DNA from: Trueperaceae bacterium
GTDB taxonomy: Bacteria; Deinococcota; Deinococci; Deinococcales; Trueperaceae
Assembly: GCA_965213705.1 (NCBI GenBank)
Contig: OZ243913.1
Location: forward strand, 3,424,001-3,488,000
Direction: 5' to 3'
DNA: 64,000 nucleotides
Positions 32,642 to 59,751 of this stretch are shown here, one piece after another (positions within the stretch are counted from its first letter, which is position 1; each line of letters starts with the position of its first letter). Below the pieces are notes generated by a model, which worked only from the letters and a program-made list of their open reading frames with translations, had not been told where the DNA came from and did not search any database. Position numbers and translations under genes: made by a program.

Positions 32642-32643
32642 TA

Positions 32644-37568: not shown

Positions 37569-37713
37569 AGCTCTGAGCGTTCTGCGCAAGTCCACCACAC
37601 TCGCCAAGACCAATCCGTTGCCTGGCGATGGAACAGGGCCTTGGACGGTGTGTGGGTTGGAGAGAGTGCTGTTCATGGATACTAGGGTTATCTACGGACC
37701 AATAAACTGGCCT

Positions 37714-40434
37714 CTAACCGCTTTCTGCTGTGTAAGCAAAACGAGCTGCAAGTCCTGCTACGGTTGCATTTGTAGAGATGGAATCATGAGGAATAAGTAG
37801 GTAAGCCCACGGCTTGGTGCCGTGCTCCTCAGCATGTGCGCTCGCATGTACACACCAAGCTGACGCCGCCGCCGCTTTTTGCAAAACTTCATCATTTGTC
37901 ATCTGGTCGGCACGTTTGGGTTCACATAGATAATGCGTAGTAGCTGTTTCGACCACAAAGTCCGGTTCATAGGAACTATCCTGACGGTAGTAAATCTGCA
38001 GTTGGGTACGTGCGGGCTTGAACCACTTTTGCACGCTCATATCATCCTCGAGCAACACCGCAAAACGCCGTTCCGAGTCCGAATCAAATTTCTGCACCGG
38101 GTATAGTGACTTGGCGAAGCCGCCAAACAGCATGTTTCTTATGTCCGCCCGGTTTTGAATGGTTGCTCGGAAGTCGCTTATAGCCACACCTTCAGGTGCG
38201 TTGAAGCTTGTCTCGTCGAGCGTTAGGAACCCACGGCTGACTTGCGCTTCGTAGCCCGTCGCCTGTTGCCAAAAATGTTCCTGCATCTGTGCGTGGATAA
38301 GCTCGGCCAGCCGCTGTTCGTGGTATTGCAACACGTTGCGCACATCGTCAGGATCATGAAGATACGACTGAAGGTACCCGACGACCTGACCTGCCAGCTT
38401 GTAAAGCAATTCGGCGTTGTTCTCGTAGGACACATCGTCGTAGTCAATGAGACGCCGCACGATATAGTTTTCCGGGCGTTCCTCCCCTGCAACGGGACTA
38501 CTCTCTAAGCGCTCCCGTTCGTGCGTGCGCAGGTGCTGAATCAGAATGTCTTGAGAAACAGGCTGAAGTCTAAACCCAAGCTCGAGGTCGAAGTCTCGAA
38601 ATCCCGAGGTCACTTCCCCTGTTGGCACCACGATGATCCTGGGGATGTCGATGGTTCGCTCGACGACAAGATTGGTTACCTGCGCAATGACCTCCTCGAA
38701 GTTCGGCGTTTCGACCACATCCAAAGTGCCCTGGACGGGCAGCATTTCTTCCTTGACCGCCGCGATAATCTGCAATCTGACTTCCGGCATTTGTAAATCC
38801 TCGGCGCGAGGCAGCCGCGTGAATCTGCGCTGAATCACATCTAGCGTGGTACGGGCAACCTGGCGCGCTTCAGGCGTGTGAAAGGGTGATGCTATCTCGG
38901 ACCTGGGAGGAGCTAAAACTGTTGCTGTGCCCGTGGAACGAACGTCCGACGCCAAGGGCGTCGCTTGAGCACCGGTGGGTTCCGCGAACGCCGCGCCCAA
39001 CATCGACGGTACGGTAACAACTTGTCGACGCTCTTCTGGAATATCTCGCCCAATGACGACGCCCGTGCGGATAATCGAATCGGGGTTGTTGGCCTCGTCC
39101 ACGATTTGCTGAAAGCGGTCGTGGGCGACGATGGTGAGGCGGTCCACGGCGGATACCCCCACCTTGCGTCCGTAGGGCAAGCGCAAGCCGCGGCCAATCG
39201 ACTGCTCGACGAGCGTTCGGGAGTTCGCGGCGCGCAAAGGAACTATAGTGTAAAGGTTGGTTACGTCCCAACCCTCTTTAAGCATGTTGACATGTACTAC
39301 GATTTCCGTCGGCTCGTCGGGGTGCTCGACCGCCATAAGCCGCTCGATGGTCTCATCTTTCTCTTTGCCACGCTGATTGGAGTGAACTGTGATCACGCGA
39401 TTTTTGTAACGGCCCCCGTAAAAATCGTCTTCCTGAATCGTGGCAACGAGGTCGCTCGCGTGGTCCGTGTCTTGCGCCACGACCAACATAAAAGGCTTCA
39501 CCCTACCTACACCGTTCTACCGCGCATAGGTCTCGAGTTCGACCTTGGTATTCTCATGGACGATTACCGCGTCCTCGAGCTTGAGCCGTTCCAACTGCGC
39601 GTCGGAGTAGGTGCGCGGGTCGAAGTTCTCTCGCGTTGCCACAGCGGGTTCTTTGACGAAGCCGTCCTCTAAAGCCTTAAACAGTGGGTAGCTATAAATC
39701 ACGTTTCTGAACGGTGTCGAGTTACTGCCCGTTTCGACCTGCGGGGTGGCGGTAAGCTCGAGCCCCAGAATCGGCTTGAGGTCGTTGATGGCCCGCACCC
39801 CGGCGCTGGCGCGGTAGCGGTGCGACTCATCCATAAGCATCACCAGGTCATCCAGGCCCGCCAAGTAGTCGAAGTAGCTCTGTCCGATGTACTCCGACAA
39901 GCGCCGGATGCGCGAAGTCGCCCCACCGCGCACGTCGCTGTTGAGTTTCGAGATGTTGAAGATGTTGATATGCACATCGCTGAAAAGCGCCTGCTCGCGC
40001 ACGCCCCGCCCCGACTCGTAGTTGTCGCCTGTAATAAGCGTCGGCGGGTTGGTCGAGAACTCGGCGATTCCTTGGAACACGTACTTGGCTGTGTTGGGCG
40101 TAAAGTCGGCGATGAGTTTGTTGTAGATGGTTAGGTTGGGGGCCAGTACAAAAAAGTGCTTAATGCTGTGCTGCAAATAAAGGTAGCTGATAAACGCGCC
40201 CATCAGTCGGGTTTTGCCCACACCCGTCGCCAGCGCAAAACATAGAGAGGGAAAGTTACGCTCGAAGTCTTCTACCGACGGGAACTCGGACCGGATAACG
40301 TTGAGCGCTTCCGTCAAGTCGATAGTTTTGTCCAAACGCACAATTTCCATTACGCGGTCAAGGATTTCCAACGACTCGCGCTGCGGCGGACGCAGGCTGA
40401 GCCGCCCGCTGAGGGTGTTGACAATCCGGTTCAC
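37714..40434 (-). pseudogene. res: Type III restriction helicase-nuclease Res, split by one in-frame TAG (39517-39519)
   Basis: ATGVGKT, DESH, TATP, MLKEGWD, IGRGLR and YEPDF...EPK; both halves in the same frame. Confidence 0.85.
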
Positions 40435-42188
40435 GCCTTGCTCGCTGAAAAGAGCGTGGGTTGAGCAGATTCGGGTTCGTTTTCCAAGTCTGGCTCGGCG
40501 AGCACCTCCGGTTCCGGTGGGGGCGCGGGCTCCAAGTTTTCGACCTGCAAGCTGTAGTCGTCCTTGCCGAACTCGCAGCGGCCCAACACCGCGTTGGGAA
40601 TCTTCTTGAGCGTCAGGTTGTCAAAAGCGTTCGCGCTCGCCCGGAAGGCCGCGCAACAAATCAGCAGTGAGCGCCCCGGTCCAACCTCGTCGCTGAGCTG
40701 CGCCAATTGCTCGCGGGACAGCGTCTGCGTGGTCACGTAGATAAAATCCTGCTCGGTGGACTTGCCGTGCTGCCAGTACACCGTTTCGGACGGCGCGTAG
40801 CGAAAGCCCTCGTGCTTGCACATTGCCTCGGCCAGCATTTCGGCGTTGTATTCGCGGCTGATGATCCAGTTGCCCCACTTGTCCTTTTCGAGCAGCGACG
40901 GCGCGAGTTTGTAGTAACGAAAGCCGCCGCCGCCTTTCCACTTGACATCTTTGGTGACTCCACCCTCGTCAGTACCATCAACTACTTGCTTGAGACGCGG
41001 AACGATGTGAGTATGGGCATGTTCGCCAAGCTCAACCATAATCCAACGGCGACCCATCTTTTGAGCCACTGCGCCTGTTGTACCCGAACCAGCAAAAGAA
41101 TCAATAATTATGTCTCCTTCATTGGATGCCAAATAAAGGATGCGTTCAATAAGCTTTTCTGGCTTTGGGGTAGTAAATGGATCACCGGGATTAAATTTCT
41201 TAACCTCTTGCGCTGCAATTCGGTTTTCTCCAACTTCGCTGTAATGCCAAGTTGTCATCGCTACAACACCGTTGTCTTGAAGTTCTGATAAGAAACGCTT
41301 TATGGTTGGCTTGCTACTTCCATTTTTACCAAAGTGGATTCTGTTGTCCAGAATCAAGTCGTCATATGATGACTTGATGTAGGACCATGCTCTACCTTTT
41401 GCTGGCAGAACCTTTCTTCCCGAAGGTGTCACTATCTCGTAAATATTGACGCTTTCACCCGTACGTGAATATTGTTTACCTCGTTGTCCAGAGGCCAAGC
41501 TCAAAGTGAAGTTGTCTGGATACCAGGGACCTCGGCCGTACCAGTTTCCGTCTTTGTCGATCCCATCAAACTCATCTGAATGTTTGTATGTTGAGTTTTG
41601 CTTTGCTGTTCGGGGTAATCTTTTGGGTCGCCAAACTTCTTTGTTTTTTGCATACACCAAAATATGATCATGGCTGTCAGATAACCAAGTGGCGTTACTT
41701 TGAGGTGATGACTTTTTCTGCCAAACGACGTTTGACACAAAATTGCTACGACCAAATACTTCGTCACAAAGAACCTTAAGATAGTGTGCCTCGTTATCGT
41801 CGATACTTATCCAGATAGAACCGTCATTGGATAACCAGATAGAACCGTCATTGGATAAAAGGTGTCTCAGAAGCTCCAACCGCGGTCTTATCAAAGATAG
41901 CCATAAAGAATGCTCTACACCATCGTCATACTGAGCAAATGCCGACCCCGTGTTATAAGGCGGGTCAATAAATACGCACTTAACCTTACCCGTAAAATCC
42001 TGTTCCAACGCCTTGAGCGCCAGCAGATTGTCCCCGTGAATCAACATATTGTCGAAGATGTCGTCTTCACTCACGCGGTGTTTGGCGTGGTAGCTCTTGT
42101 CGGGGTCGTGCAGCAGGATGCGGGGCTCTAGCTGCGGGCGTTTTTCCTTGCCAATCCAGGTGAGTTCCAGTTTAGTTCTTTTGCTCAT
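40431..42188 (-). CDS. mod: Type III DNA adenine methyltransferase Mod
   Basis: MSKRTKLELTWIGK start; GDNL, IDPPYNTG, TPKPE and DSFAGSGTT; overlaps the res start. Confidence 0.9.
   Translation of the reverse strand: MSKRTKLELTWIGKEKRPQLEPRILLHDPDKSYHAKHRVSEDDIFDNMLIHGDNLLALKALEQDFTGKVKCVFIDPPYNTGSAFAQYDDGVEHSLWLSLIRPRLELLRHLLSNDGSIWLSNDGSIWISIDDNEAHYLKVLCDEVFGRSNFVSNVVWQKKSSPQSNATWLSDSHDHILVYAKNKEVWRPKRLPRTAKQNSTYKHSDEFDGIDKDGNWYGRGPWYPDNFTLSLASGQRGKQYSRTGESVNIYEIVTPSGRKVLPAKGRAWSYIKSSYDDLILDNRIHFGKNGSSKPTIKRFLSELQDNGVVAMTTWHYSEVGENRIAAQEVKKFNPGDPFTTPKPEKLIERILYLASNEGDIIIDSFAGSGTTGAVAQKMGRRWIMVELGEHAHTHIVPRLKQVVDGTDEGGVTKDVKWKGGGGFRYYKLAPSLLEKDKWGNWIISREYNAEMLAEAMCKHEGFRYAPSETVYWQHGKSTEQDFIYVTTQTLSREQLAQLSDEVGPGRSLLICCAAFRASANAFDNLTLKKIPNAVLGRCEFGKDDYSLQVENLEPAPPPEPEVLAEPDLENEPESAQPTLFSASKA
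41811..41858. repeat. Exact 24-bp tandem duplication inside mod (LSNDGSIW x2)
   Basis: CCAGATAGAACCGTCATTGGATAA twice. Confidence 0.95.
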
Positions 42189-43514
42189 GTCTCCCTTAAT
42201 TCTTGTGTACGGTCGTCGGCGCTTTGCAACGGCAGCGATGAGTTTCCGTTTTGCTATCGTATTTTGGCAGATTGCCACAGCTCTGACAAACAAGCAAACG
42301 GGCCAAACTCACCGTTCTTGTGCCGAAGTCTTCCACGTCGTCATCCGACACGCTGGCATTGTTTGGGTTGAAATGCGCGCCAACCTGGTTGCGAATGAAA
42401 GCGAGTTCTTTTATGGCCTCGAAATATTCTTTGAGAGCCACGCGCTCAACGGTGCCGTCCGGCTGAGGCCGCTCAATTTCAGCCTTGCTTGCGAAGCTAG
42501 CGGTGGAACTTAGCAACTCGCCTAGCGTGTAGTCGTTGTTGGGTTTTCTCTCCAGCTTCAATCTATGGTCTATCGTCAAATGGTCGAGAAGGGCTTCCAA
42601 AAGTATCCCGGCTTTGGCTGCGACCACTTGGCGGTCAAAAGGTAGACTTTGCAAAGCTTGCTCGAGTTCTTCCACAGCAGGTTTACTCTTGCTCGTAGTA
42701 ATGCCACGGTTGAGCGACCACTTGTTTAGTTGAATCAGGTCGATACCCGCAGAAATTTTTGACTGTCGGTGGTAATCGAGCCACACGCGGTTGTGAGTGG
42801 TAATGATAATTTGACCGAAACGCTCGCTTTCCTCTTCGATAAGCTCGAGAATTCGCCGCAGGTGCGGCGCGTCCACGGAGGTAAACACGTCGTCCAGAAT
42901 GATGATTGCGTTGCCGCCGGTAGCGCGGTGGGCGATGGCGAGCCAAAAGCAGAACCCGAGCGTGTCAAGGTGGGATTCGCTGAAATAGGCTTGGGGAGGT
43001 ATGTCGGTGTACGTCCCGAAGGTCGCCGACTGTTTTAACGAAGCGCGTCTTTCCTCGTAAAGGGCAAGGCCGGAAAACTCGACCGGCTCGCCCGGGTGAA
43101 TCGCGTTGTAGAGGCGTTTGCACTCGTCGGCCACAGCGTCCAGAATGGCTTGGGTGAAGGCGTGCCGTTTCGCCCTGACGAGGGCGTGAGTTTTCTCCAG
43201 ATGCTTGAGAATGATGTCATTCTCGACGACTTCTTGCTCGTTTTCCTGAATCTTGTTCCAGTTGACGCTTAAGGCGTTGTAAAGGTGCAAGTGCTGAGAT
43301 TTGCTTTCCACGAGTGCAGAGAGTTCGTTGCAGCAAGAGCGAATATGTTGGGCGTATGAGGCGGCTTGGTTCAGTGTTGCCGGGATGCCGTCTTCGCTTG
43401 CTCGGACGGAGTTTACAAAAATCAGGTGCGGTCGTAGCGTCGTCGCAACTGTTCTTGCCAATAGGTCGGCGACTTGCTGAGCGCTCTCGAGAAGGTTGTG
43501 TTGGGCGCGCTCTA

Positions 43515-44368
43515 GAGGGTGTTATGAACTCAATCGCTAAACTAAAGAATGACAAGGAAAGGTTATCCGAGTGATGTCGGCGATGAAGAATGGGCTTTTG
43601 TAGCACCGTACTTGAGCTTAATCAGAGAAGACGCCCCACAACGAAGTTATGACCTACGAGAGGTGTTTGATGCTTTGAGATGGATGGTTCGCTCAGGCTC
43701 ACCTTGGCGCTATTTACCTGGTGACTTCCCACCTTGGGAAGCGGTATATCAGCAAAGCCAAAGGTGGTTAAAAGCAGGCGTGTTCGAGGAGATGACCCAC
43801 GACCTACGAAGCCTGCTGAGACGGCTGAAAGGACGAGGAGAAAACCCAACAGCGACGGTGTTTGATGGACGCACCTTACAAAGTACGCCTGAGAGTGGCG
43901 AACGTGCGGGCTATGACGGACACAAGCGTAAGAAAGGCTCTAAAGTCCATCTGGCAGTCGATACCTTGGGTCTACTCTTAGCCCTTGTCGTTACACCTGC
44001 AAACGAACAAGAACGCCATCAGGTTGAAGCGCTTGCCGAGCAAGTTCAAACCATAACTGGAGAATCCGTCGAGGTTGCGTTTGTAGACCAGGGCTACACA
44101 GGTGACGACGCAGCCGAGGCGGCTAAAAGCCAAGGCATTCGGCTCTTCGTTGTTAAACACGAAGAAGCTAAGAAAGGCTTCGTTTTGCTACCCAGACGCT
44201 GGGTCGTAGAGCGTTCCTTTGCCTGGACATCCCGACTCAGGCGCTTAGCCCGTGACTATGAACGACTGCCTGAAACCCTTGCTGGGCTGCATTTCTTAGC
44301 TTTCTCTATGCTCATGCTTAAACGCTTAGCCCCTTTTTTAACTCTTCCGGCTAGTTCATAACACGCTC
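43515..44368 (+). mobile_element. Intact IS5-family (IS1031-like) element
   Basis: 16-bp TIRs GAGGGTGTTATGAACT / AGTTCATAACACGCTC, flanked by TA on both sides. Confidence 0.95.
43549..44361 (+). CDS. IS5-family transposase
   Basis: YPSD, VDTLG, VDQGY and [11 protein letters not shown] motifs. Confidence 0.95.
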
Positions 44369-45347
44369 TAAGCTGGTGCGGGCGTGGTCCCGGGTGCGTT
44401 CCGCAGCAGTAAAGTCGTCGCTTAACCGCTGCGACTCCTCCATTTGCCTTAGGCGCTCATCAATCTCGCGGCGCAAACCATCGGCACTGACGGACTGGTC
44501 ACAAATTGAGCAGGTGTCAAACTCCCTGGGCAAGGCGATGAACGCCTTGACCTGATTTAACAACCGGGTTAACTCGAGGGAAGCATCCTCGCCGGTTGCA
44601 GCGAGCTGTGCGAGCGCCGACTCCAACTCCTTGACCCGCATTTCGCCTTGGTGAAGGTTTTCTCGGGCTATTGTTACGGCGTCTTCTGCCACCCCAAGCT
44701 CTGTGAACGCGGCTTTTAGCACGTTGAGCCGCTCGAGCTCGAGCTTCAAAACCGAGGTGTCGGCGCTCGCCCGTTCCTGCGCCCAAGCCCTTGCGTTCGC
44801 TCCAGGACTGCCCTCGGCTTGCCACAACCTGTCTAGGCTTTCTTCGGCCCCTTGTTTGACGCGGATAGCTTCAGCGAGCCTGTCATTGGCGCTCCGAGCC
44901 GCCCTTGCAAGTGTAGCTTCGCACCGCTCTATTGCGGCTACATTGATAAAGCGGCTTATTTCTTTGTACCGGTCGGCAGGTCGCGCCTCGACAAGGCGCA
45001 AAAGCTGGCTCCGCCGCAGAATAAGGGCCGCAGGCGGGGTACCGGGTCCGGTGGCGACAGGCCTAGTACGGTTAAGCGTGCCGGTCCAGGTATCCTTGTC
45101 GAACCTTATCTCAATGTTGACGTCGCCGTAATCTTTTCCGAGGGCGGGTAAGTGGCTGCGATTGCTCGAGCCGCGCTCGTCGAGCGAACCTGCCTGTTGG
45201 TTGCAAATCATGTCGATGGCATCGATGATGCTCGATTTGCCCGTGCCGTTCTCGCCGAACAACATGACAACCGGTTTCTTATCAAAATTGATTTCTGAAC
45301 GAGTGGTGGCTCCACGAAAGGCTTCTAAGTGAATACTGCGAATGCGT

Positions 45348-45530
45348 TTATTCACTGCCAACCTCATCAAGGGCGAGTTCGGCGTAAAGCCGCCAATCTT
45401 CTTCTTTGAGCCTTCCGGCTGCAAGTTGCTCGCGAAATTCGTCTACCCTACCTTCCGAAATGAGGTTATTCTCCTTCAAGGCTGAGGCTATAATTTCGGC
45501 TAGCGCGTCGGCTGGATTTTGTTCGGGCAC
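45348..45530 (-). CDS. 60-aa acidic helical protein coupled to the ATPase
   Basis: GGGGAG RBS; stop overlaps the ATPase GTG. Confidence 0.65.
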   Translation of the reverse strand: MPEQNPADALAEIIASALKENNLISEGRVDEFREQLAAGRLKEEDWRLYAELALDEVGSE

Positions 45531-45539
45531 ATTCTCCCC

Positions 45540-48365
45540 TTAAGACACAATCCATCTAACTAGAAAGAGTGATTCTACCTTATGCTCGAGCTGTAGTTGC
45601 CGCTCTAGCTGTGAAATTAGAGAATCGCGTTGCTGCTCGACCTCGTCCTGGGCGTTATATAGTTCGCGGCGCTTGCGGTTACGGCTTTGCTCCAAACTAC
45701 GCAGCGTCTTCTGCGCTTCAAGTTTCTCGGCAAGGGTGACGACTGCCTTCGCATGCTTCTTTGCTTCTCTAATTTGCCGGTCTATGTCTTTGATTTCCTG
45801 CTCGAGGCCGAACTTTAAGTCTTCGGCCCAGCGGTCGAGTTTGGTTTCTTCCTCTTCGAAATAACTTGCGTTGCGAGCATTAACCTCGGCGAGGCAGCGT
45901 TGGAACTCAGCAGCACGCACGTCGGCGAGTTGAATGGGGGCTTTGGTGAGTGAAACCTGCGTCTCCGAGGCAGCTACACTGAAAAGGCGCTGACACTGTT
46001 CTTGGTCGAGTGGCTGACCCGCATCGGTAAGGGCTGCAAAAACGAGAAACTCCTCCGCCTGAACTGAATTCACAGTGAGCTTACTCAGCTCTAGCCAACC
46101 GCTCTGCTCGACCAACGACTCGAGAATGGCAATGCGGGTGGGGTGGGCGGAGTATGCGAAGGTTAGATCTGCCGTTCCGAGCGGTCTGTTGAGTGCCTGG
46201 GCCACGATTTTCTGTGCCAGGGGATGCTCCAGCCGGTAGAACACGGCGTTCATCGCCTCAGCCGTTTTCCAGTCAAAGTGATAAGTTGCGTGCTGCGGGG
46301 AATCGTAGGTAAATGCAGGCGTGTTTGGAACGAATGCGGCCTGACCTTTGAGTTCATTTCTGGTAAGTTCTAAAAGCCAGCGTTGGCGCTCGGATAAGGT
46401 TGCCTGTGCCTTATCCTTATGAATTTTGAGGCGATCGTGAACCTCTTCATCAAAGTGTTCAAACAGAACCTGTCGAGTTTGGTCCATACGGGTTTGAATC
46501 GTTTCTTCAAGTTCACTTTGAAGCGTATCGAACGCGGCTTGGATCTCACCTGCCGTACGACAGGTTTGATAGGCGCTAGCTATCCGTTTTTCTAGGTCGA
46601 CTCCAGATTCAAGCGCACCCAGCACTTCATCACTTGCCCCGAACACACCATCAAACAGTTTGAATTTTTCGGAAAGAAGCTCGAACACCCGCTGGTCGGC
46701 GGCGTTACGTCTATTAAGGAAGTTAACCACCACCACGTCGTGTTGTTGCCCGTAGCGGTGACAGCGTCCGATGCGCTGCTCAATGCGCTGTGGGTTCCAG
46801 GGTAGGTCATAGTTCACCACAAGCGAACAGAACTGAAGGTTGACACCTTCCGCCGCCGACTCGGTTGCGATGAGGAGAGTAGCGCGATCACGGAACTCTT
46901 CTACGATTGCGGCCTTCATATCAGCAGAACGTGACCCTGACAATTGGGCCGAGTTCTGGTGCCGCTCTGCATACGACTCGTAGATTTGTTTCGAGGTGAG
47001 ATCGTTGTTTGAGCCGTTCATAAGGACGATCTCACCTTGGTAGCCATGCTCGCTAAGGTAGTTGAACAGGTACTGCTGGGTGCGTCGTGACTCCGTGAAA
47101 ATGACGGCCTTGCGAGAAGCGCCGAGTACTCGGATTCGTTCAAACGCCGTACCTAAGACTTCCAAAAGTGCTGCTCCCTTAGCATTATGGCTGATCTTTT
47201 CGGCAAGCTCAGCGTAACGTTTTAGGTTTGAAAGCTCGTTTTGAAGCAACTCTCGCTCGGGCGGGCTCATTGGCTCGGGCGACTCGTCCCATTCCTCCAG
47301 AAGTTCATCAAGGGCTTCAAAATCGTCATCAAGCGCATCCTGCAGGCGCTGCTGCTCCCCTTCTTTCGTTTCCAACCGAGTGACGAGCCGGCGCAGTGTA
47401 CCCGCAATAGCATAGGTGGATGACGCCAAAAGTTTCCTCAGCACGAGGGTCATGAGCTGGCGCTGGCTGGCAGGAAGCGCAATTAGAACGTCCTTTTGCA
47501 AATAATCAGATACAAGTTGGTAAAGCGTATGCTCCTCATCAGTGGGCAAAAAATTTTGCGTAATTGAAGTGCGCTGCGTGAAACGCACGTATTCGAGCAC
47601 CTGCTGGCGCAGCGTGCGCCGACAGATTGGCTCAAGCCGCGCCTTAAGCACTGCATTACGCTTTCGTTCGTTATCAACTCGTACAAACTGTTCCCGGAAA
47701 GAGGTGATGTCTCCGAATACATGCGGGTCAATGACGCTCACTAAACCGTAGAGCTCGAGCAGTGAATTTTGTAAGGGCGTGGCGGTGAGCAACAATTTGT
47801 TGGCGTGGGAGGTCGCTTCCGCAATCGCCTTGGCGAGCTTGTTGTCTGACCTATAAACATTTCTCATGCGGTGAGCCTCGTCGATAACAACGAGATCCCA
47901 CTTTATCTTTTTTATTTCTGCCGCTTTCGCCTTGACAAAGTGGTAGGAGCAAATAACCACTTTGCCTTCTTGTTCGAACGGGTTATTCACACCTTCACGC
48001 TTACACTGGTTGAACGACTTGGCCTCCAGAATAACTGAGGGTAGTGCAAACTTATCAGCGAGTTCCTGCTGCCACTGTTTTCGCAACGTAGCCGGGAGCA
48101 CGAGTAGGATTGCGCGTTTGCGCTCGGCCCAGCGTTGGGCCAAGACTATACCTGCCTCGATTGTCTTGCCAAGGCCAACCTCGTCCGCCAAGATGACGCC
48201 CTTTGAGAAAGGTGAACGTGAGGCGAATAGGGCAGCATCAACTTGGTGGGGATTGAGATCAACTTTAGCGCTTGCAATAGAGCGGGACAACCCACTCATG
48301 GTGCCACGAGCACTCTGGAGCGTTAAGGCTTGTGCCCAGTAAAGACTGTGGTAGTGCGTGCTCAT
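45540..48365 (-). CDS. SNF2-family helicase
   Basis: ADEVGLGKT, DEAH, TATP, EGVNLQ and WNPQRIEQRIGR; C-terminal coiled coil. Confidence 0.9.
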   Translation of the reverse strand: MSTHYHSLYWAQALTLQSARGTMSGLSRSIASAKVDLNPHQVDAALFASRSPFSKGVILADEVGLGKTIEAGIVLAQRWAERKRAILLVLPATLRKQWQQELADKFALPSVILEAKSFNQCKREGVNNPFEQEGKVVICSYHFVKAKAAEIKKIKWDLVVIDEAHRMRNVYRSDNKLAKAIAEATSHANKLLLTATPLQNSLLELYGLVSVIDPHVFGDITSFREQFVRVDNERKRNAVLKARLEPICRRTLRQQVLEYVRFTQRTSITQNFLPTDEEHTLYQLVSDYLQKDVLIALPASQRQLMTLVLRKLLASSTYAIAGTLRRLVTRLETKEGEQQRLQDALDDDFEALDELLEEWDESPEPMSPPERELLQNELSNLKRYAELAEKISHNAKGAALLEVLGTAFERIRVLGASRKAVIFTESRRTQQYLFNYLSEHGYQGEIVLMNGSNNDLTSKQIYESYAERHQNSAQLSGSRSADMKAAIVEEFRDRATLLIATESAAEGVNLQFCSLVVNYDLPWNPQRIEQRIGRCHRYGQQHDVVVVNFLNRRNAADQRVFELLSEKFKLFDGVFGASDEVLGALESGVDLEKRIASAYQTCRTAGEIQAAFDTLQSELEETIQTRMDQTRQVLFEHFDEEVHDRLKIHKDKAQATLSERQRWLLELTRNELKGQAAFVPNTPAFTYDSPQHATYHFDWKTAEAMNAVFYRLEHPLAQKIVAQALNRPLGTADLTFAYSAHPTRIAILESLVEQSGWLELSKLTVNSVQAEEFLVFAALTDAGQPLDQEQCQRLFSVAASETQVSLTKAPIQLADVRAAEFQRCLAEVNARNASYFEEEETKLDRWAEDLKFGLEQEIKDIDRQIREAKKHAKAVVTLAEKLEAQKTLRSLEQSRNRKRRELYNAQDEVEQQRDSLISQLERQLQLEHKVESLFLVRWIVS

Positions 48366-50311
48366 CAATCCGCAGCTTCACCAAGGACCAACACGTCCTT
48401 CTCGACATACGCCCGAAAGTCGTCTACTGCTGTAAAGAACATATAACCCGCCTGATTTGCAGCTTCCTCAGTCTCTTGAGGCTCCCCTAACAAAAGTGTC
48501 ACCGGCTGGCTGAGGCCCTCCTGCAATCCGTTCGGCCAGGCGAGGTCAAGAACAGCCTTAAGGTTTCCCTGCTCATCAACTAGCTCGTACATGAACTCAC
48601 CCTCGGGCAACCCTTGCTCGGTTACCCAGGTATTGACATCCAGTAGTTGTTGTTCTTCCTCCTGGGTGTCCACATTGCCAGGAATGATTGTGATGGGCTC
48701 TCCCCGCACTGGTGCAACGTCGCGCTGCGGAACAGAGCCGTGATAAAGCTTATCCAGAAACGCGTTTGCCGCCTCGGCCAAAAGCTCTTTTCGAGCCGCC
48801 AGGAAGTCTGAATAGTTCTCAAGTCGCCACAGTTCACGATCCATCGGAATCCAGTGGGACTCGAGCACGCCAGGATGTTTGTTGGCATACTCGGCCAGAT
48901 ATTCCTCGGGTAGGCGGTCGGACACCTTCAGGTTGGTGTCTTGCGTCAGGAAGGTGAAGTTAGCGAGCGTGTTCACTTCGGCCCTGCCATAACCCTGCTT
49001 GTAGAGCTGCGCTTTGGGGAAGATGTGATGCACTTGCAGGTTGCTTAACCTGCCGAGTAGATGGTTGGTAAGCTCGACGCCCGTTTCCCAGTCGCGTGAG
49101 TGCCACACACGGGTCATCATGTAAAGCAGCGGGTAGAAGCGTGCGCCCATGCTCCAGCCCCCTAAGTCACTTGGGTTGACGCGTAGGTCGCCACGGTTGC
49201 GCCTTAGCCCCTCGATGAGTCGATCGAGTGCACCTTCGTTGTCCTCGATCAGGTTCAAATCCTTATTTAAGACGCTCTCGGTCGAGCCTGCATAACGGCC
49301 CCATAGGAAGGTGTGGACGTACCAGTAGAGGAGCCGGTCGCGCTCGGTAGCATCGCTCAGGTCGCCACCGCGCTGCTGCCAGTAGCGGACCAACAACGGA
49401 AACGAATAGCGGCTGCCCAAAACGCGGTCGTGGTCCAGCCCCAACCGTGAGGCGATCAGGTTGAGGAAGGTGTCAATCCCCTTCTCGGCGCGCTGCAGAC
49501 CTTCTTTGAAGGTTGGAGTATCCACATCCTTGAGGGCGGTGAACAGGGCTTCTCCAGTGAGGAGCGTGTTGATGTTGCGCAACAGCCAGTCGAGTTTGAA
49601 GTGGTACCCGGCACGGCCCCATTTCTCGAGCCTGACTTTCATCTCATCCCGAGCGTCAGGCCACTCGGCGCAAATCTTAGCTAGAGCGAGGTCGCCCTTG
49701 GAGAGCTTGGTGCCGCCGCTGTTTACCACATTGAAGATGTCGACCACTACGTCAACGGTCTTGTCTTCGCCGGTGACCTTCTCGATGTGCATATCTATGT
49801 CTTTGATACCGTGTACGTGGTTTACACGCTCAATGTAGGTGCTGAACTTGGGTTGCAGGTCTGGGTTGCCGTAGAGCCGCTGCATCACCCCCGCCATGCC
49901 CTCTTGCATAAGTGCTGTAACGCCCACCCACAGCGGGTTATCCTTCATCTTAAGCGGCGCGTAGAACTCGAAGTTCTCATCCTCTAAGTTGAAGTAGAGG
50001 CCAGTAAATACGTCAGGGTTACCATCGAAGAACTTGGGTGGCTTGCCCCGCATCACCCCATATAAGCTCGTCATGCGCTGCTGCCCATCCAGGATCAGTT
50101 CGACCGAACCGGGCGTAAGCTGCCCGTCACCTCTCGAGGGTGCGCCCTCGGTCTTGGTGACCCATACGAGCAGGCTGCCTACTGGATAGCGCTGGTAGAG
50201 GGAGTGCATCAGCTTGCGAACCTGGTCGCGGTTCCACACGTAGCCGCGCTGGAATTCAGGCAGCGCCATCGCGCCGAGGTCAATCTGGTTGAGGATGGTG
50301 CTGATGTGCAT
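48365..50311 (-). CDS. GmrSD-like (DUF262 plus DUF1524/HNH) modification-dependent nuclease
   Basis: PEFQRGYVW, DGQQR, FNVVNSGG and HHIFP...NFTFL; extra C-terminal DLAWP domain. Confidence 0.8.
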   Translation of the reverse strand: MHISTILNQIDLGAMALPEFQRGYVWNRDQVRKLMHSLYQRYPVGSLLVWVTKTEGAPSRGDGQLTPGSVELILDGQQRMTSLYGVMRGKPPKFFDGNPDVFTGLYFNLEDENFEFYAPLKMKDNPLWVGVTALMQEGMAGVMQRLYGNPDLQPKFSTYIERVNHVHGIKDIDMHIEKVTGEDKTVDVVVDIFNVVNSGGTKLSKGDLALAKICAEWPDARDEMKVRLEKWGRAGYHFKLDWLLRNINTLLTGEALFTALKDVDTPTFKEGLQRAEKGIDTFLNLIASRLGLDHDRVLGSRYSFPLLVRYWQQRGGDLSDATERDRLLYWYVHTFLWGRYAGSTESVLNKDLNLIEDNEGALDRLIEGLRRNRGDLRVNPSDLGGWSMGARFYPLLYMMTRVWHSRDWETGVELTNHLLGRLSNLQVHHIFPKAQLYKQGYGRAEVNTLANFTFLTQDTNLKVSDRLPEEYLAEYANKHPGVLESHWIPMDRELWRLENYSDFLAARKELLAEAANAFLDKLYHGSVPQRDVAPVRGEPITIIPGNVDTQEEEQQLLDVNTWVTEQGLPEGEFMYELVDEQGNLKAVLDLAWPNGLQEGLSQPVTLLLGEPQETEEAANQAGYMFFTAVDDFRAYVEKDVLVLGEAAD

Positions 50312-51573: not shown

Positions 51574-53205
51574 TTAGGACTGCCAACCTCCGTCTCCCTC
51601 TACCATCTTTGGTTTCACTCTCATAGGCACAAGCTTTTGCTCCACACGCAAAGTCCATTCCTTGGGCGTCCCCACGTGTAGTAGACGGTGGACATGAACA
51701 ATCCAGGGATATAAAACATGTACTAGCTCGAGCCTAGTCTTACTCCAGTTAACCTGCGGCGTAATAGTTTCCGCAAACATCTCGCCTAACCGCTCTATAT
51801 CGTCATCCTGGTCTTTGCGCCCGCTAGCAGTAACGAGCAGCGTCGCCGCTTTGCGCGCGCTTAAAGCCTCTAATTCTATGAGGTAGGCGGGCAGGCAAGA
51901 TGGCTCCTGAATCACAGCAATCACCACGCCGACGTCGCGGTCCGGCCCAAGCATAAGTGTGATCTGGAAAATCTCTAGCGGCTTCACCAAACGTGTACTG
52001 AGTTCGTTTAGGTAAACAGCGAAATCATTGTAATAGCTTACCAACACGGGGTCATTTAACTTTAACTGCTCATCACTGCTGTCATTGGACTTCGACACTG
52101 CGCCAGGTGTCTCAAATTCTCCGGGACGCAAACTTCCTTCACGCCTTCCGCGCGTTAAACCTACCTTTTCGGTTTCATCTTTTGGGTTAACAACTATTTT
52201 AGGAACTTCTATAGCCTCTTCGTCCGATAGTTTGGGTTGCAGTCGGGTGGGCTTGGGGTCACTGAGAGGCGGCGCGGGATGTGGCAGCTTACGCGAAATC
52301 TTCTTTTTTGTAACCCCTGCCCCCGTTGTGTCGATCGTCACTGTCCCCTTCGGCCGCAAGTGAACAACCTTCTTACTATCCTGCGAGGCAATCGTGCGCT
52401 GTTTCAGCTGTCCTATAACCCCGTAGCTTATAAGCTGGACGGGTAAAGCTTCTACCAGGGTGATGGCAGTAATCTCGAGCACGAGCAGCGTCTGTTCATA
52501 CTTAATGCCTCTCAGTCGCCACGTGGACTGCAGCGGAGGCACTGCCTCGGCTGACCAAGCCTGCTTCTGTTGTGTCAAGGCGCGCGACGTATGCTCCCAG
52601 GCAGCTGCAAACCGGGGCAAACATAGTATGCGGGCGACTTGTCTAACAAACGTTTTGGTTAAGTAATTGCGCGGAACATCTTTGTGAAACCACAGCTCGA
52701 GTTCATGGCCGTCCACCTTGTAGCTGTGGACGATTTCCCTCACCGCGTTAGGCCTGAGCAAGACCTCGGCCAGCGCACGGTTGTGAGCGAAGCAGGCACG
52801 CACTAGCTCGGAGACGGGAACGACCATGCGTTCGCCTTCTGAAAGTTTAAATCCAAAACAATGTTCCAGATAGTTTGCGCGGTCAAAAAGTCGGTAGTGC
52901 TTAGCGCTGATAAGCTCTCGTGCTGAGCGCACCAATGTGTCTTCGACCAGTTTACTAACTTCGAAATCGTGACCAACAAAATCATTCTTGGGCTGACCGT
53001 CCTGGTACGCCTGCCCGAGCCGCAACATCGGTACAGAACCCCACGGTAACCGCACTTCTTGTGGAGAACCGTCGACTGCTTTAAAAGACGCCGTAAGGTG
53101 CCACTGCTTGGTGACTGCATCTTGTGTAGGACTTTGCAACCAGTACAAATACACCCGCTCTGCCTTAAGAAATGGAAAGGGGGCAAAGCGGACTTGCCTA
53201 GACAT
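51574..53205 (-). CDS. tnsE: Tn7 TnsE-like target selector
   Basis: Fifth gene after tnsD; PFPF..LYW..SP..PWGSVP N-terminus and PVSELVRACF, which resembles the TnsE clamp-binding motif. Confidence 0.7.
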   Translation of the reverse strand: MSRQVRFAPFPFLKAERVYLYWLQSPTQDAVTKQWHLTASFKAVDGSPQEVRLPWGSVPMLRLGQAYQDGQPKNDFVGHDFEVSKLVEDTLVRSARELISAKHYRLFDRANYLEHCFGFKLSEGERMVVPVSELVRACFAHNRALAEVLLRPNAVREIVHSYKVDGHELELWFHKDVPRNYLTKTFVRQVARILCLPRFAAAWEHTSRALTQQKQAWSAEAVPPLQSTWRLRGIKYEQTLLVLEITAITLVEALPVQLISYGVIGQLKQRTIASQDSKKVVHLRPKGTVTIDTTGAGVTKKKISRKLPHPAPPLSDPKPTRLQPKLSDEEAIEVPKIVVNPKDETEKVGLTRGRREGSLRPGEFETPGAVSKSNDSSDEQLKLNDPVLVSYYNDFAVYLNELSTRLVKPLEIFQITLMLGPDRDVGVVIAVIQEPSCLPAYLIELEALSARKAATLLVTASGRKDQDDDIERLGEMFAETITPQVNWSKTRLELVHVLYPWIVHVHRLLHVGTPKEWTLRVEQKLVPMRVKPKMVEGDGGWQS

Positions 53206-55078
53206 TGCTACGTTCCAGCGTCGGGACAACCAACTTAGCTAGGGCTTCGTTCAGGGCTTGCTGCACGTTGGGCAGTGCAACAAGATCGGGTCGAAGCCCT
53301 GCCATGCGCTCTAGCTGCCAACGCTTTGGACACTGTTTCTTTTGCCAGCCCCTGGCAGCCCAGCTGATGCGCCGTAGTGCAAAATCCTCTCTGGTTTCGA
53401 CGTTCACTCCTATAGCTTCAAGCGTTTTGGGTAATTTGCGCGCATGTTTTTGGATAAGTGCAACTTGGCCCAACTCACGTGCCAGCGATGTGACTGTCAA
53501 CCTAATCTGCTTGCCCTTGCCGCTACGCAAACGTTCAACAGCAGCATTCACCTGGAGTGATAAGTGCTCGTCCCGTTCCTGCCAATCAATGCGGTGATAG
53601 CGGCTGGCTTTGGTGTGAGCCGGATGCTTTTTTGCAAAGTCTCTGAGCCAGGTACGGTCGTGTCGGTAAAGCCGTGTATAGAGGTGTGGGGAGAGTGCCC
53701 TCAACTCAGTAGTGCCTGCACTAGGGTGAACCTGGTGTAGCGCTATCCACGCAGCTTGCATCTCTTCTCTTGTGGAATTTGAGGTTTCGACACTTCCGTC
53801 CACCTCCACCTTCATGCCCGCTTCATACCGCGTTACGGTGCGGGTTGTAACACCCAAACAGCGCGCCTTCTCCCGCAGTCCCATGCCAGCACATTTGTAC
53901 CTTGACAGTGTATCTTTCCACACAGGGCCGAAGTCAATCATTCGGTCAATCCGGTGACGGTCTTTTGCATCTCGGTCAGGTCCCGTGCGTTGGTAGGTGA
54001 ATCCGCATAGCAGACATTCAAAGGTGCCAACAGGTCGTCCTTTGTCTTTCGTGTGATGCACGACGATACTCTTAACTGTATCCTTCTGAAAATGATCACT
54101 GGTGCAGTTTAGACAGGGCCAGGGTTCGGCTCCGAAAAGTTCTTGTGGCGTATAGCTGAAAAAGTTCTGCGGGCTGTATTCCAGAAACCTCATAAGCAGA
54201 AGGTGACGCAGTGGATGGTGCGAAGACTTTGGATGGCGAACGATGCGGTGGAGCCAGGTGTGTTGTGTGGCCTCCGGCAAGGGGCACTCGAGCAACCCGA
54301 GAAGCTCGTCGCCGTAGAAGTTCCTGAAAGCTTCTATAAGCTTGCTCACCCGCACTCTACCTGCATAGGTCGCGTACCCCTTTTCCGCCAGCGCCCAACG
54401 GTACTTTTTTCGGAACTCTGTTAGGTCTACAGTCTTTATCGTCTGTCTGAGCAACCATGAGGCGTCTTTGGCGAGCCCCACGAGGAGGTTATGACTGCGT
54501 GGGTCAAACCGACTCGGGGAAAAGGCTTTCCTTTCGACAACCTCTCGCGCCGCCCAGAAAACGTGCCGGTTGCGCCGGTTGGAAGTTATTACCCGACTGT
54601 CTTGCAACACGACTTCATGAGTTGGACAAATGTTTATGCCAGGCAGTTGGTGCGCACGTCGCCAATAAGGTTCACCCAGCTTAAGAATGTCCTCTTCGGT
54701 GCAGTGAGGGCAGTGGCGAAGCCGCGCAGGTGTTTTGACAGAACTCGCCATGACGCCGCTGCTGAAATGAACGTAGTCGCTGCCCAACATTGCGGCCGCG
54801 AGTTTCTCTGCGTGCTCAGCTGCCATAAAAGGTCTATAAAAAGGCAGGAGAGTGTGGTTGTTGATAATGTCTCGGGCGCTGGCAAAAAGTCCGCTAGGCA
54901 CCGTGTCATGCACGTGCGCTAAATGGTTGGGTAGGTCCACGACTGCCAGAGCGTTACGACTCCCCAAAACGTTTAGCGTAAAGGTTTTAGCGTCTGGATA
55001 CCCTATCCGAAGGCTATAGCGTGCGCACAGGCTGTAGAAAAGCTCGTCAGGGTAGGGTATGGGGAAATTGTGCAACAC
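53198..55078 (-). CDS. tnsD: Tn7 TnsD (TniQ domain) target selector
   Basis: FPIPYPDELFYS, CPHC and WRRAHQLPG..CPTH Zn finger; 626 aa. Confidence 0.9.
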   Translation of the reverse strand: MLHNFPIPYPDELFYSLCARYSLRIGYPDAKTFTLNVLGSRNALAVVDLPNHLAHVHDTVPSGLFASARDIINNHTLLPFYRPFMAAEHAEKLAAAMLGSDYVHFSSGVMASSVKTPARLRHCPHCTEEDILKLGEPYWRRAHQLPGINICPTHEVVLQDSRVITSNRRNRHVFWAAREVVERKAFSPSRFDPRSHNLLVGLAKDASWLLRQTIKTVDLTEFRKKYRWALAEKGYATYAGRVRVSKLIEAFRNFYGDELLGLLECPLPEATQHTWLHRIVRHPKSSHHPLRHLLLMRFLEYSPQNFFSYTPQELFGAEPWPCLNCTSDHFQKDTVKSIVVHHTKDKGRPVGTFECLLCGFTYQRTGPDRDAKDRHRIDRMIDFGPVWKDTLSRYKCAGMGLREKARCLGVTTRTVTRYEAGMKVEVDGSVETSNSTREEMQAAWIALHQVHPSAGTTELRALSPHLYTRLYRHDRTWLRDFAKKHPAHTKASRYHRIDWQERDEHLSLQVNAAVERLRSGKGKQIRLTVTSLARELGQVALIQKHARKLPKTLEAIGVNVETREDFALRRISWAARGWQKKQCPKRWQLERMAGLRPDLVALPNVQQALNEALAKLVVPTLERSNV

Positions 55079-56586
55079 TAGGCGTCCTGGAACTCGCCTT
55101 TAGATGCAATGTAGCCTCCGGCTACGAGCGCATCATAGGTGGATATGTTTTCCTCACCGGCCTGCTCGGCGGCAAGAAGTAGGCCTGTCGTCCGACGAGC
55201 TTTCTTTTTTTGGCTTTTGCCGGTGACTCTTCCCGGCTGTTTTGGGTTGCCAGCTTCTGGTGGACTTGGTAGAGTACCTGCTTGACTCGCCCTTGGCTCG
55301 CTAAACTCTCGTTTTGGCTTTCGGTTGTTCATTTCTCGCATAAGCTCATTTAGCTCTTCTTGTGCGCCCGGTTTGTCGCTTCTAAAGGCGGCGAGCGCAG
55401 CTTGAGCAGGTGCAAAAATGGTGCTTGCCACTTCTATGATGAGGTCTAACGTAATTTTTTCGGTTTCGTTTTCTATCGCCTGCTGCTGCACGCCAATAAA
55501 AAGCTTGACAACCAAATCGGGGATGCCCACTGTTTCGTGATGAAAGCGACTGCTAATTTCTGGTGTCAGCTCAACCTTTTGAGCCGTATATTGGTAGTCC
55601 CAAAACGACTCCAGGAACTTGTCCCAAATTAAGTGGTCGCTTTCGGTCCTCGAGAAGGGTTTCCAGTGGAAGGGACGTGATGTGATATTTCGTCTGACCT
55701 GCCAAAACTCCTGCTCGAGAACTTCCTGCGCTCGCTCTGTCCCTACCATCAGCACGCCGCAGCCGCTGGTGTTGATAAGTTCGGTGAAAAAAGCTAACAT
55801 CTGCTTCGCGCCGCTCGACTTTACCAAGCTCAAATTTTGAATCTCGTCGATTACGATTAGTCCGATGTTGAATAGGCCAGCAATCCTGCCGACATCGGGT
55901 ATCATTTGGGGACCGGTACGCCCGCCAAAATCTTCGGCAAAGGTGGTGTTGCCAATAACGCGGTCAACCTCTAAAAAGAATTTGTCACACAAACCGCGTA
56001 TAGAACTGTTATGAGGACAGTCGAGCTTGAGCCACACAATCTGTGTAAATGGAAAGGTCTGTCCGCGGTACTGACTGTGGAAGATTGCTTGTGGGTAAAG
56101 AGCGAGTATTCGAGACAAGGCAATCGTTTTACCCAGCCCGCTCATGCCGCAAAGAAAAAAACTTCCTTTAAAGCCGCCCGGATGGTAGCGCATCTGGCCT
56201 GCCTTAGTGGCAACGAGCCTTTCTTTGAGCCTATCAACTTTTTCAGAAAGGTGATTCCAGTAGGTTTTGTCAGCAAAGTTGTTGCGGTCTATGTAGCTCA
56301 GGCGTAGCAACGTCGAGATTTCTGACTCGAGTGTGTAGTGGCGATGCAGCGGCACGAACATGCGCTCTAAGCCACGAACAAGCTGCACCCGCACTTCACT
56401 TGGATAATCTAAGGCTTCTTTTTTGAAGTTGGGGAAGTAAGCGATACGCTCCAAAACCTCTTTTTTTGACATAATAGCTGGTAGCGCTTCGATCAAGGGG
56501 TTACCCTCGTGCTCTTCGATAAGCACGTCTCGGTACGCCCCATCTTTGACTGTTCCATCAACAAATTTTGCCTTAAAATCACTCAT
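55078..56586 (-). CDS. tnsC: Tn7 TnsC AAA+ ATPase
   Basis: GNPLIEALP, GMSGLGKT, WLKLDCP and IDEIQ motifs. Confidence 0.92.
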   Translation of the reverse strand: MSDFKAKFVDGTVKDGAYRDVLIEEHEGNPLIEALPAIMSKKEVLERIAYFPNFKKEALDYPSEVRVQLVRGLERMFVPLHRHYTLESEISTLLRLSYIDRNNFADKTYWNHLSEKVDRLKERLVATKAGQMRYHPGGFKGSFFLCGMSGLGKTIALSRILALYPQAIFHSQYRGQTFPFTQIVWLKLDCPHNSSIRGLCDKFFLEVDRVIGNTTFAEDFGGRTGPQMIPDVGRIAGLFNIGLIVIDEIQNLSLVKSSGAKQMLAFFTELINTSGCGVLMVGTERAQEVLEQEFWQVRRNITSRPFHWKPFSRTESDHLIWDKFLESFWDYQYTAQKVELTPEISSRFHHETVGIPDLVVKLFIGVQQQAIENETEKITLDLIIEVASTIFAPAQAALAAFRSDKPGAQEELNELMREMNNRKPKREFSEPRASQAGTLPSPPEAGNPKQPGRVTGKSQKKKARRTTGLLLAAEQAGEENISTYDALVAGGYIASKGEFQDA

Positions 56587-58765
56587 CGCCGTCACCTAAA
56601 GCCCGCCGCCGTAATTGGTCGATTATATCGAGGTCTTTTTCCTCCAGGGTTTTGTGAATTTGCTCTGAGCTGGCGGGGGCACTCAGGATGTCGTCTAAGT
56701 CGGCGGAGGTTTCCGGCTCAGGCAGGCCTACTGCGGATGACGTTTCTGGCAGCTCCTCAGGCTGCCATGATTCTTCGGTGCGCAGCTGCTGGCGCATCTC
56801 CTCCCGCCCCTCCTTAAGTGGAATTTTTTCGGAACGAGCCTGGTCCCCCTCCGTTAGGCGCTCGGCTTCACTGACAATCGCCGCGATGTTGCGGCGCAGC
56901 TCACTTCTTGCAGCACGCTCTTCCGGCAGCGACTCCTCCTTGTCGAGCTTCTTATTTTCAGTATAGTCCTCCACTTCATACCAGTCACGCCCTTTGAAAC
57001 CCTCATAGTTGTGCCTGAGCGTGGCAACCTCAAATACCCCGTCTTGTATTATGTAAATCCAGTTCGTTGTGCGCTTGTCGTAAGCGATTTTTGCGCGAAA
57101 AGTCCCGTCTATGCGGGCACGCGACGTCCACCTTTCGCGGCGCTCACGAAGACTGGTGTAAGCGAGCGTTTGAAACATAACTCCGTCGCGGGTCACCGAC
57201 GCCTCAGCCTGAGGCAGAAGGCGTGCACGCACCATATCTCGCGGCTGATGATGCAGTTTACCACTGCGGTGCTGGATACCCCAGCGCCAAAGCTGCATGG
57301 GGATAGGCTTCACTTGCTGTTCAAGCATCTCGCCACTGAGTGGATACTTCTCGAGCTCGTGGCTTGAGTTGTAATAGCTGAACATATGCGCGAGAATCAT
57401 CCGGAACTCATGGATGTCTAGCTTTGCATCGTCGGGATTACCCTTTTTATTGCGGTCCTTGGGTAGTTTTCTGACAGCGCCGGGGAGCCAAACGATAACT
57501 TCATCATCGATCAACTTGAAACGCCTCTCGACGATGGGCTTCCATTCGGGGCGATAGGGTGCTGTATTGGCTACGGAGACGTCAAGCTCTTGAATCAACC
57601 CCACAGCTTGATTAGACAAAAGTTCTCCGCGGTCAGCCAGTAAAGCCTGTGGCAGTAAGGAACCTACATAGCTGCTCCTTAGTTCCAGAAGGTTGTACTG
57701 TGCTAGAAAGTCTTCCTTATCATTGAAGGCGTGTTCTAACGCCAACATTGCACCCACCCAACTAGGGCCTTCTAAGCCCACGTAGAAACCTATTACCAAC
57801 CGGGAAAAAGTATCAATAACAACATAAATCACCGGTCGCCCTATGATGACGGACCTATTCAGTGAACTAACCAGGTAAACGTCGCCTATAGTGGCGTCAA
57901 TTTGAAAAAGGGAACCGGGGCCAAAGGCGATGTCTGTCGATATACCCGACAGCTCGCGGTATTTCAAATTGAACAGAGTTTTTCCAATGCGTCCGGCTTT
58001 TCTCTCTATGGGTGAGCGCTCCTTGCGATACCAATAGTAGGCCTGACCTAAAGTGGGCTGTTGCCCAACGATAGGAAAAGACGCGTCCAGCATTAGTTCA
58101 AACGCCGTTTTAAACGAAAAATTTTGTTTCTCGTAATACTTTATGAGACCATCCAATATTTTCTTTTTACGCTCGTCATCAATGTTTACGCCAATTTGTG
58201 CACCGACGATTTTACTTTTGCTAGTAGGCCGCCCTCGTTTTTTGGCAGATGAATTTCGTGACTTTCCTTTTCCACCAGAAAAAAAATAAAAAGGAAGCAG
58301 CGCGTCCTTATGACCGAAGCGCCAGTACAGACGTAGATAGTTCAGGATTGTATCTCTATGTGTATCCTCAGCAGAGGCGACGCTTCTAATGAGTTTTCCC
58401 CGGTAGCTACTCTGAAAAATATGACCAGAGGGATCTTCAACAAGAGGCTGAATTATTGCCCAGGCGCGGTCGCGGCGCTCTTTGAAACTAAGGTTTCCCT
58501 CCTTCACTTCTTCCTCCACAGCTGCCTCTCTAGCTAAAAGCAGTTGATGGGAAAGCGGGTCTTCCTTGAGAAGTTGGGCTCGGTTCTCGTTCACTGCCAC
58601 CTCCAGCTCGAGCATTTCCATCCAGGAGGGTAGCGCTTTTTTTTCATTTATATTTAGAACATAGACTCCGAATCTATTTTTGTCTATCCAGAGTATTCTT
58701 AGAATTTCATCATCTTCTGCAGATATAGTATGGCGCAAAATAAGCTGGTTACGCAGCAGGTTCAT
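56579..58765 (-). CDS. tnsB: Tn7 TnsB DDE transposase
   Basis: FQIDAT, ADRGE and KPIVERRF motifs. Confidence 0.93.
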   Translation of the reverse strand: MNLLRNQLILRHTISAEDDEILRILWIDKNRFGVYVLNINEKKALPSWMEMLELEVAVNENRAQLLKEDPLSHQLLLAREAAVEEEVKEGNLSFKERRDRAWAIIQPLVEDPSGHIFQSSYRGKLIRSVASAEDTHRDTILNYLRLYWRFGHKDALLPFYFFSGGKGKSRNSSAKKRGRPTSKSKIVGAQIGVNIDDERKKKILDGLIKYYEKQNFSFKTAFELMLDASFPIVGQQPTLGQAYYWYRKERSPIERKAGRIGKTLFNLKYRELSGISTDIAFGPGSLFQIDATIGDVYLVSSLNRSVIIGRPVIYVVIDTFSRLVIGFYVGLEGPSWVGAMLALEHAFNDKEDFLAQYNLLELRSSYVGSLLPQALLADRGELLSNQAVGLIQELDVSVANTAPYRPEWKPIVERRFKLIDDEVIVWLPGAVRKLPKDRNKKGNPDDAKLDIHEFRMILAHMFSYYNSSHELEKYPLSGEMLEQQVKPIPMQLWRWGIQHRSGKLHHQPRDMVRARLLPQAEASVTRDGVMFQTLAYTSLRERRERWTSRARIDGTFRAKIAYDKRTTNWIYIIQDGVFEVATLRHNYEGFKGRDWYEVEDYTENKKLDKEESLPEERAARSELRRNIAAIVSEAERLTEGDQARSEKIPLKEGREEMRQQLRTEESWQPEELPETSSAVGLPEPETSADLDDILSAPASSEQIHKTLEEKDLDIIDQLRRRALGDGDE

Positions 58766-59659: not shown

Positions 59660-59751
59660 TCTTTAGTTGGCAACTTTATTTTACAGCCAACAACTTTATT
59701 TTGTAGTTGGCAACTTTATTTTATAGCCAACAACTTTATTTTTATTTCACA
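59660..59751 (-). repeat. Tn7 right end with four TnsB-binding sites
   Basis: CAACTTTATT at 59671, 59691, 59711 and 59731; minus-strand terminus TGTGAAATAAAAATAAAGTTG. Confidence 0.9.

Follow-up and report, generated by a model that had tools for sequence, protein, structure and literature searches.

The window analysed here is a 64,000-nucleotide stretch of the Trueperaceae bacterium contig OZ243913.1 (positions 3,424,001 to 3,488,000), and between positions 37,714 and 50,311 it carries six minus-strand genes that a sequence-only reading had described as one coupled defence operon. The genes encode a GmrSD-like protein, a SNF2 helicase-like ATPase, a small helical protein, a Rad50-like ATPase fused to a HEPN domain, and the Mod and Res proteins of a type III restriction-modification (RM) system (Table 1). 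The six genes lie where that reading had placed them, and all five junctions agree with its description (TGATG, 9 bp, overlap, 7 bp, GTGA). The gene identities were borne out by scans against Pfam, PADLOC and NCBIfam and, for the Rad50/SMC and HEPN folds, by structure prediction. The claim of a single six-gene unit did not survive. Based on co-occurrence counts taken from the ATPase side and from the SNF2 side, the locus consists of three layers: a three-gene SNF2-Mod-Res core, an embedded pair formed by the small protein and the ATPase-HEPN, and a chance neighbour.

Table 1. Features of the locus in window coordinates (aa, amino acids; IS, insertion sequence)
Feature	Position	Strand	Remarks
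GmrSD/BrxU-like DUF262 protein, 648 aa, intact	48365..50311	-	start at 50311; TGATG overlap with SNF2
SNF2 helicase-like ATPase, 941 aa, intact, DrmD_b-like	45540..48365	-	first gene of the three-gene core
60-aa helical protein, no known family, GTG start	45348..45530	-	9-bp gap after SNF2
ATPase-HEPN gene, total span including IS5	42196..45355	-	8-bp overlap with the small open reading frame
ATPase-HEPN, N-terminal part, 329 codons	44369..45355	-	Walker A, coiled coil, CxxC hook
ATPase-HEPN, C-terminal part, 438 codons	42196..43512	-	coiled coil, YFSESHLD signature, Walker B, H-loop, HEPN with R-x5-H, Cys4 tail
IS5-family element, 854 bp, inside the ATPase gene	43515..44368	+	transposase 43549-44361; inverted ends; TA target duplication
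Type III Mod, 585 aa	40431..42188	-	DPPY and FAGSG motifs; 7-bp gap after the ATPase gene
Type III Res, 906 codons, broken by TAG	37714..40434	-	GTGA overlap with Mod
tnsA, tnsB, tnsC and tnsD of the Tn7-like element	53198..59594	-
glmS-proximal transposon end	59733..59751	-	27 bp past the glmS stop

Which genes travel together

Starting from the ATPase, we aligned 64 of the 120 homologues listed and with this alignment reached 73 loci in species genomes; the counts that follow refer to the best 80 of 237 confirmed matches. Of the 64 loci with 4 kb or more of flank, 57 have the SNF2 gene upstream of the ATPase gene, and of the 54 with 6 kb or more, 48 have Mod and Res downstream. Both flanks could be evaluated in 49 loci; in 45 of these the pair is enclosed by SNF2 on one side and Mod/Res on the other, and in 21 of the 45 it is the sole cargo. 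The small gene is found directly 5' of the ATPase gene in all 67 evaluable loci (six of the 73 were cut by contig ends), once with a 754-bp spacer; the small-protein profile had been trained on 59 of these, with eight outside the training set. The 53 ATPase-side loci that were placed in a tree bear 16 phylum labels, and the ATPase-HEPN family comprises 1652 representatives at E < 1e-30, fragments and sister clades included.

An even set of 300 genomes from the window's phylum contained the ATPase in five, this SNF2 in 14 and a close GmrSD relative in three. All five ATPase loci have the order SNF2-small-ATPase-Mod, with Res in view in four, while the small gene is missing from each of the seven loci that were retrieved among the other nine with SNF2. 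Looking from the SNF2 side, at 80 metagenome loci that were the best 80 of 591, Mod follows SNF2 in 37/40 evaluable loci and Res in 31/40; the pair is present in 12 of the 80 and the small gene never occurs alone. Of 46 slots between SNF2 and Mod, six hold nothing and another six hold the pair. The most frequent single cargo of SNF2 in this sample is the ATPase-HEPN, the largest cluster (12 loci, one of them a distant relative), narrowly above a cluster of 10 loci. Other cargo of SNF2 loci includes SIR2-HerA, AIPR, AbiE, KilA-N and Bro-N genes, the first four and others in the very same slot. Such cargo, nested between core genes, is reminiscent of the embedding of defence genes in other systems that is described by Payne et al. 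(bioRxiv 2024.01.29.577857).

The GmrSD-like protein matches PF03235 (94 bits), PADLOC HEC-05 (157 bits over residues 69-519) and the BrxU structure 7p9k (E 4e-12), and a DUF262 N-terminal domain and HNH-type C-terminal domain, with HHIFP and N motifs in the sequence, place it in the GmrSD/BrxU (HEC-05) group, as a putative modification-dependent nuclease. A relative was found in one of 49 evaluable ATPase loci, there downstream of Res, and in none of 32 evaluable SNF2 loci was one located 5' of SNF2. None of the three close relatives in the phylum sample lies beside this SNF2 clade (one has a distant SNF2 nearby), and plasmid relatives adjoin DISARM or other helicases. The gene is an independent chance neighbour, outside the conserved unit. 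The idea of a fixed system in which GmrSD is integral can draw on the TGATG coupling to SNF2, on the precedent of BREX with BrxU, where modification-dependent restriction is paired with modification-blocked restriction, and on the recurrence of HEC-05-like genes in or near related loci (L001, L037, L083). Weighed against these co-occurrence counts and the differing contexts of its relatives, it appears very improbable and is largely refuted as a conserved unit; in this one locus, co-expression and added protection are possible.

The sequence-only reading had not recognised the arrangement as a named system. This holds for the pair and fails for the SNF2-Mod-Res core, which is already in print (PMC8259958; bioRxiv 2023.04.06.535777). 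Murray et al. 2021 (PMC8259958) report that more than 500 genomes have type III systems in which mod is preceded, on its 5' side, by a gene for an additional helicase-like ATPase, and state that the role of this ATPase is unknown and that it is dispensable for cleavage. Silas et al. (bioRxiv 2023.04.06.535777) report that EcoR22I, with a drmD-like SNF2, restricts phage and kills the cell on Ocr. Aligned over 968 columns, the SNF2 proteins of the window and of E. coli NCTC86 share 43.8% identity (E 0), and the NCTC86 locus has the order SNF2-Mod-Res with no embedded genes; we infer that this locus is Eco86II from the statement that the strain has one type III system (PMC8259958). The window shares its gene order with Eco86II, BspHIV and EcoR22I, and its SNF2 gene, which lies on the 5' side of mod and is homologous to that of NCTC86, groups it with Eco86II. 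SNF2 scores 716 bits against NF038318 (DrmD_b), under the cut-off of 950, and no DrmA, DrmB or DrmC was found among the neighbouring proteins scanned, so that DISARM class I was rejected.

Mod matches PADLOC MTase_III (722 bits) and the two halves of Res match REase_III (262 and 503 bits). We located DPPY and motif I of a beta-class Mod, and Walker A/B and PD-(D/E)xK motifs in Res, which is broken here. Unlike their SNF2 partner, Mod and Res belong to another subfamily than those of the NCTC86 locus: Mod is 25% identical to its NCTC86 counterpart over 396 columns and Res had no BLAST match to NCTC86. The methyl mark, N4-methylcytosine (m4C) or N6-methyladenine (m6A), is therefore not transferable from NCTC86; DPPY is found in both kinds of Mod. 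The same SNF2 clade is paired elsewhere with quite different Mod/Res subfamilies (L223:8984-18401, L003, L001), suggesting that Mod and Res have been exchanged behind a constant SNF2.

A decayed copy within a Tn7-like element

The copy in the window is decayed, with lesions in three of the six genes. The IS in the ATPase gene and the TAG in Res, both seen in the sequence-only reading, are real; a third lesion had been overlooked, an exact in-frame 24-bp tandem duplication in Mod (41858-41811), soon after DPPY. In the alignment it appears as a gap of 8 residues in 69 of the 79 rows, with two rows gapless and eight showing other gap lengths. The in-frame TAG of Res is at 39519-39517, codon 306 of 906, where E or Q stands in 61 of 76 aligned rows. 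The genome holds seven identical copies of the IS5 element, suggesting a recent jump. Two runs of one sample, which is probably the source, yielded contigs without a single letter difference over 37500-50500, and because of this agreement the lesions are not errors of this assembly. With lesions in three of its six genes, the present-day copy probably does not work as the sequence-only reading described and, being decayed, is a poor model.

The operon had been taken for probable cargo next to a Tn7 core. Its cargo status stands, but it is not merely a neighbour of the core: it lies inside the element, because one end adjoins glmS and the matching end is 87.8 kb away. The two ends (G000:C1:3483751, window 59751, and 3395946, the latter outside the window) are identical over 19 bp, the 5-bp target duplication is imperfect, and the element (G000:C1:3395946-3483751) takes in window 1-59751. 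None of the 73 ATPase-side loci contains tns genes. The GC content at third codon positions of the operon genes (0.48-0.71) is below that of glmS (0.80) and pheT (0.82).

Several further genes were observed in the surroundings. A 551-aa open reading frame (ORF; 51574-53229, minus strand) overlaps the end of tnsD in the usual place of TnsE; it has a single copy in the genome and no Pfam, PADLOC or NCBIfam match. Located 5' of the GmrSD-like gene are a broken DDE_5 transposase remnant (50599-51500, minus strand), presumably IS701-like, and a 114-aa ORF of no family that resembles a gene fragment (50408-50752, plus strand). A 158-aa ORF with a partial match to the Cap4 nuclease (PF14130) lies among IS fragments of the same element (32619-33095, minus strand). 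Convergent with Res is a gene of the Cro/C1 helix-turn-helix (HTH) type (37260-37568, plus strand); in other loci an HTH gene is found 5' of SNF2.

The small protein and the ATPase-HEPN

The conserved unnamed part of the operon is the pair of small protein and ATPase-HEPN. Read through with an X at the IS break, the ATPase has 329 + 438 residues (767 aa) and is colinear with intact homologues of ~784 aa, to which it is 38-43% identical. Its ABC ATPase part, with coiled coil, CxxC hook and a predicted Rad50/SMC fold, is fused to a HEPN domain recognised by its predicted helical fold, R-x5-H and an upstream E. No PADLOC, NCBIfam or Pfam family match names the protein, and its 60-aa partner has no family in the libraries searched and no sequence match to LmuC models. 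A complex model of the homologous pair from L011 scored 0.65 against 0.00 for the best control. In this model the small protein sits on the coiled coil beside the ATPase head, in the position described for the SbcD C-terminal domain and for long LmuC, so that it is predicted to bind the head-proximal coiled coil. No description of the pair was found in the literature searched (Krishnan et al. 2020, which possibly covers the clade, and supplements lie outside that search), nor in the available parts of PMC12839542, PMC10853773, bioRxiv 2026.07.06.735840 and bioRxiv 2026.07.10.737580.

Variants of the pair were observed at individual loci. In L069:5654-6808 and L075:8875-9999, an AbiEii toxin encoded behind AbiEi runs on in frame into the small-protein domain at its C-terminus; both joins keep an internal ATG and are therefore possible rather than demonstrated fusions. 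The Acidobacteriota loci L052:4506-6338, L076:9977-11788, L012 and L013 form an apparent decay series that includes SNF2 plus pair without Mod/Res, a solo pair, and pairs in which the ATPase ends just before HEPN, as do several ATPase representatives of ~610 aa. Sister ATPase clades in L083:7904-10524 (816 aa) and L097:14744-17307 (~840 aa) have a 57-69-aa gene directly upstream; the former comes after a HEC-05-like gene and the latter occupies the SNF2-Mod slot. Downstream of the RM-free pair of Hymenobacter (L014, L081) come a 642-aa protein without a family and a metallo-beta-lactamase-fold hydrolase.

We favour, with some confidence, the explanation that the locus is a decayed SNF2-linked type III restriction system in a Tn7-like element, together with an embedded pair, likely an abortive backup, and an unrelated GmrSD-like neighbour. 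Reasoning from RloC, SbcCD and Lamassu, we likewise think that the pair is probably a self-regulated sensor-RNase, which would sense DNA ends or breaks during infection and cut host RNA to abort it. While Mod2Res would restrict unmethylated DNA, the ATPase may dimerise through its zinc hook and heads and sense DNA ends or breaks, most plausibly arising from phage replication or from the neighbouring Res. The small protein, replacing the SbcD C-terminal domain or long LmuC, would brace or restrain the ATPase, and ATP-driven movement of the heads could join two HEPN domains that then cut host RNA, probably tRNA, and halt the infected cell. What links the pair to the restriction locus would be its gene position and probably shared expression, rather than silencing of the PrrC type. 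The layered defence proposed from the sequence, as restriction combined with a likely abortive RNase, is supported.

Silencing of the PrrC type would mean that the ATPase-HEPN binds the SNF2/Mod/Res complex, is held inactive by it, and is released once restriction has been disabled by a phage inhibitor. Placement inside an RM locus in 45 of 49 cases is as tight as that of PrrC in type I loci, according to bioRxiv 2024.01.29.577857. Solo loci are scattered among RM-linked ones, and the at least four label changes that they need in a quick tree suggest repeated RM loss; moreover, the ATPase and Res of the window are both broken, and one Acidobacteriota set has lost its RM, with two loci lacking HEPN. 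However, a toxin silenced by RM should not tolerate absent or broken RM. Intact ATPase-HEPN genes with the catalytic motif have no RM nearby in L007, L012, L014, L035, L049, L081 and L082 (at the scale of the locus), and other intact ATPases lie beside Mod/Res that appear broken in a crude frame-and-stop screen. The pair also has a dedicated partner of its own. We consider a guard unlikely, though worth keeping in mind.

That partner could instead be a labile antitoxin, in which case the pair would act as an addiction module similar to type II toxin-antitoxin systems and stabilise the RM island without sensing infection. A small gene that comes first, overlaps and is always present would fit, as would the predicted direct binding and the mobile setting. 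The predicted contact is on the coiled coil, though, away from the HEPN active site; the small gene is kept in L052 and L076, whose ATPase is without HEPN; and a full Rad50-like sensor would be costly for addiction alone. We therefore regard addiction as improbable, and retain the self-regulated sensor-RNase as the preferred reading of the pair. Were it an RM-coupled abortive RNase, it would offer a direct test of the coupling between restriction and cell death in type III systems, and would add a second example of DNA-repair machinery being turned to immunity, here with a regulator of 60 residues for which the interface is predicted residue by residue.

Comparison with known systems

The SNF2-linked type III group is widespread; no library searched names the pair. 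In architecture it comes close to RloC (PMC2610378), with which the protein shares a Rad50-like ABC ATPase, coiled coil, CxxC hook, C-terminal HEPN and similar length. RloC itself was rejected because the triad R-x3-E-x36-52-H is missing; we found G-x3-E in 55 of 55 sequences, 68-88 residues from E to H, and R-x5-H instead. PF13166 gave 22-44 bits on four homologues, on their ATPase parts, compared with 429-550 bits for true members; conversely, two strong PF13166 members scored 15-19 bits against the ATPase-HEPN family profile and nothing against its HEPN profile. Whereas RloC is a single gene that is RM-linked in 8 of 72 cases, the family described here has a constant partner gene and the RM linkage given above. 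With PrrC it shares an ABC ATPase-HEPN that is nearly always embedded in an RM locus. PrrC lacks both a long coiled coil and a hook and belongs to type I loci, while the present family persists intact without nearby RM; the 767-aa read-through with its hook, in a type III context, led us to reject PrrC.

Long Lamassu and SbcCD (PMC12663957; bioRxiv 2025.03.14.643221) share with the pair an SbcC-like ATPase of ~800 aa with one hook and, upstream, a small gene for a protein that models place close to the heads. Among PADLOC entries the ATPase family matches LmuB best, but weakly (best E 3e-28 among 64 members). The differences are that the window effector is fused to the C-terminus of the ATPase, that the window contains no LmuA-like gene, and that the small protein has only ~60 aa; given these and the weak LmuB matches, identity with Lamassu was rejected. 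A bolder and more tentative proposal is that the pair forms a two-component immune sensor, an SbcC/Rad50-derived ATPase with a HEPN RNase, checked by a free-standing remnant of the Rad50-binding module of SbcD/Mre11 and reserved for SNF2-linked type III systems across 16 or more phyla. If so, the sensor would read DNA ends made by Res or failure of a SNF2-Mod-Res complex, and the AbiEii joins in two loci would represent a Lamassu-like effector-adaptor fusion in the making. In type III systems the pair would then correspond to PrrC, and its origin would independently parallel that of Lamassu from SbcCD.

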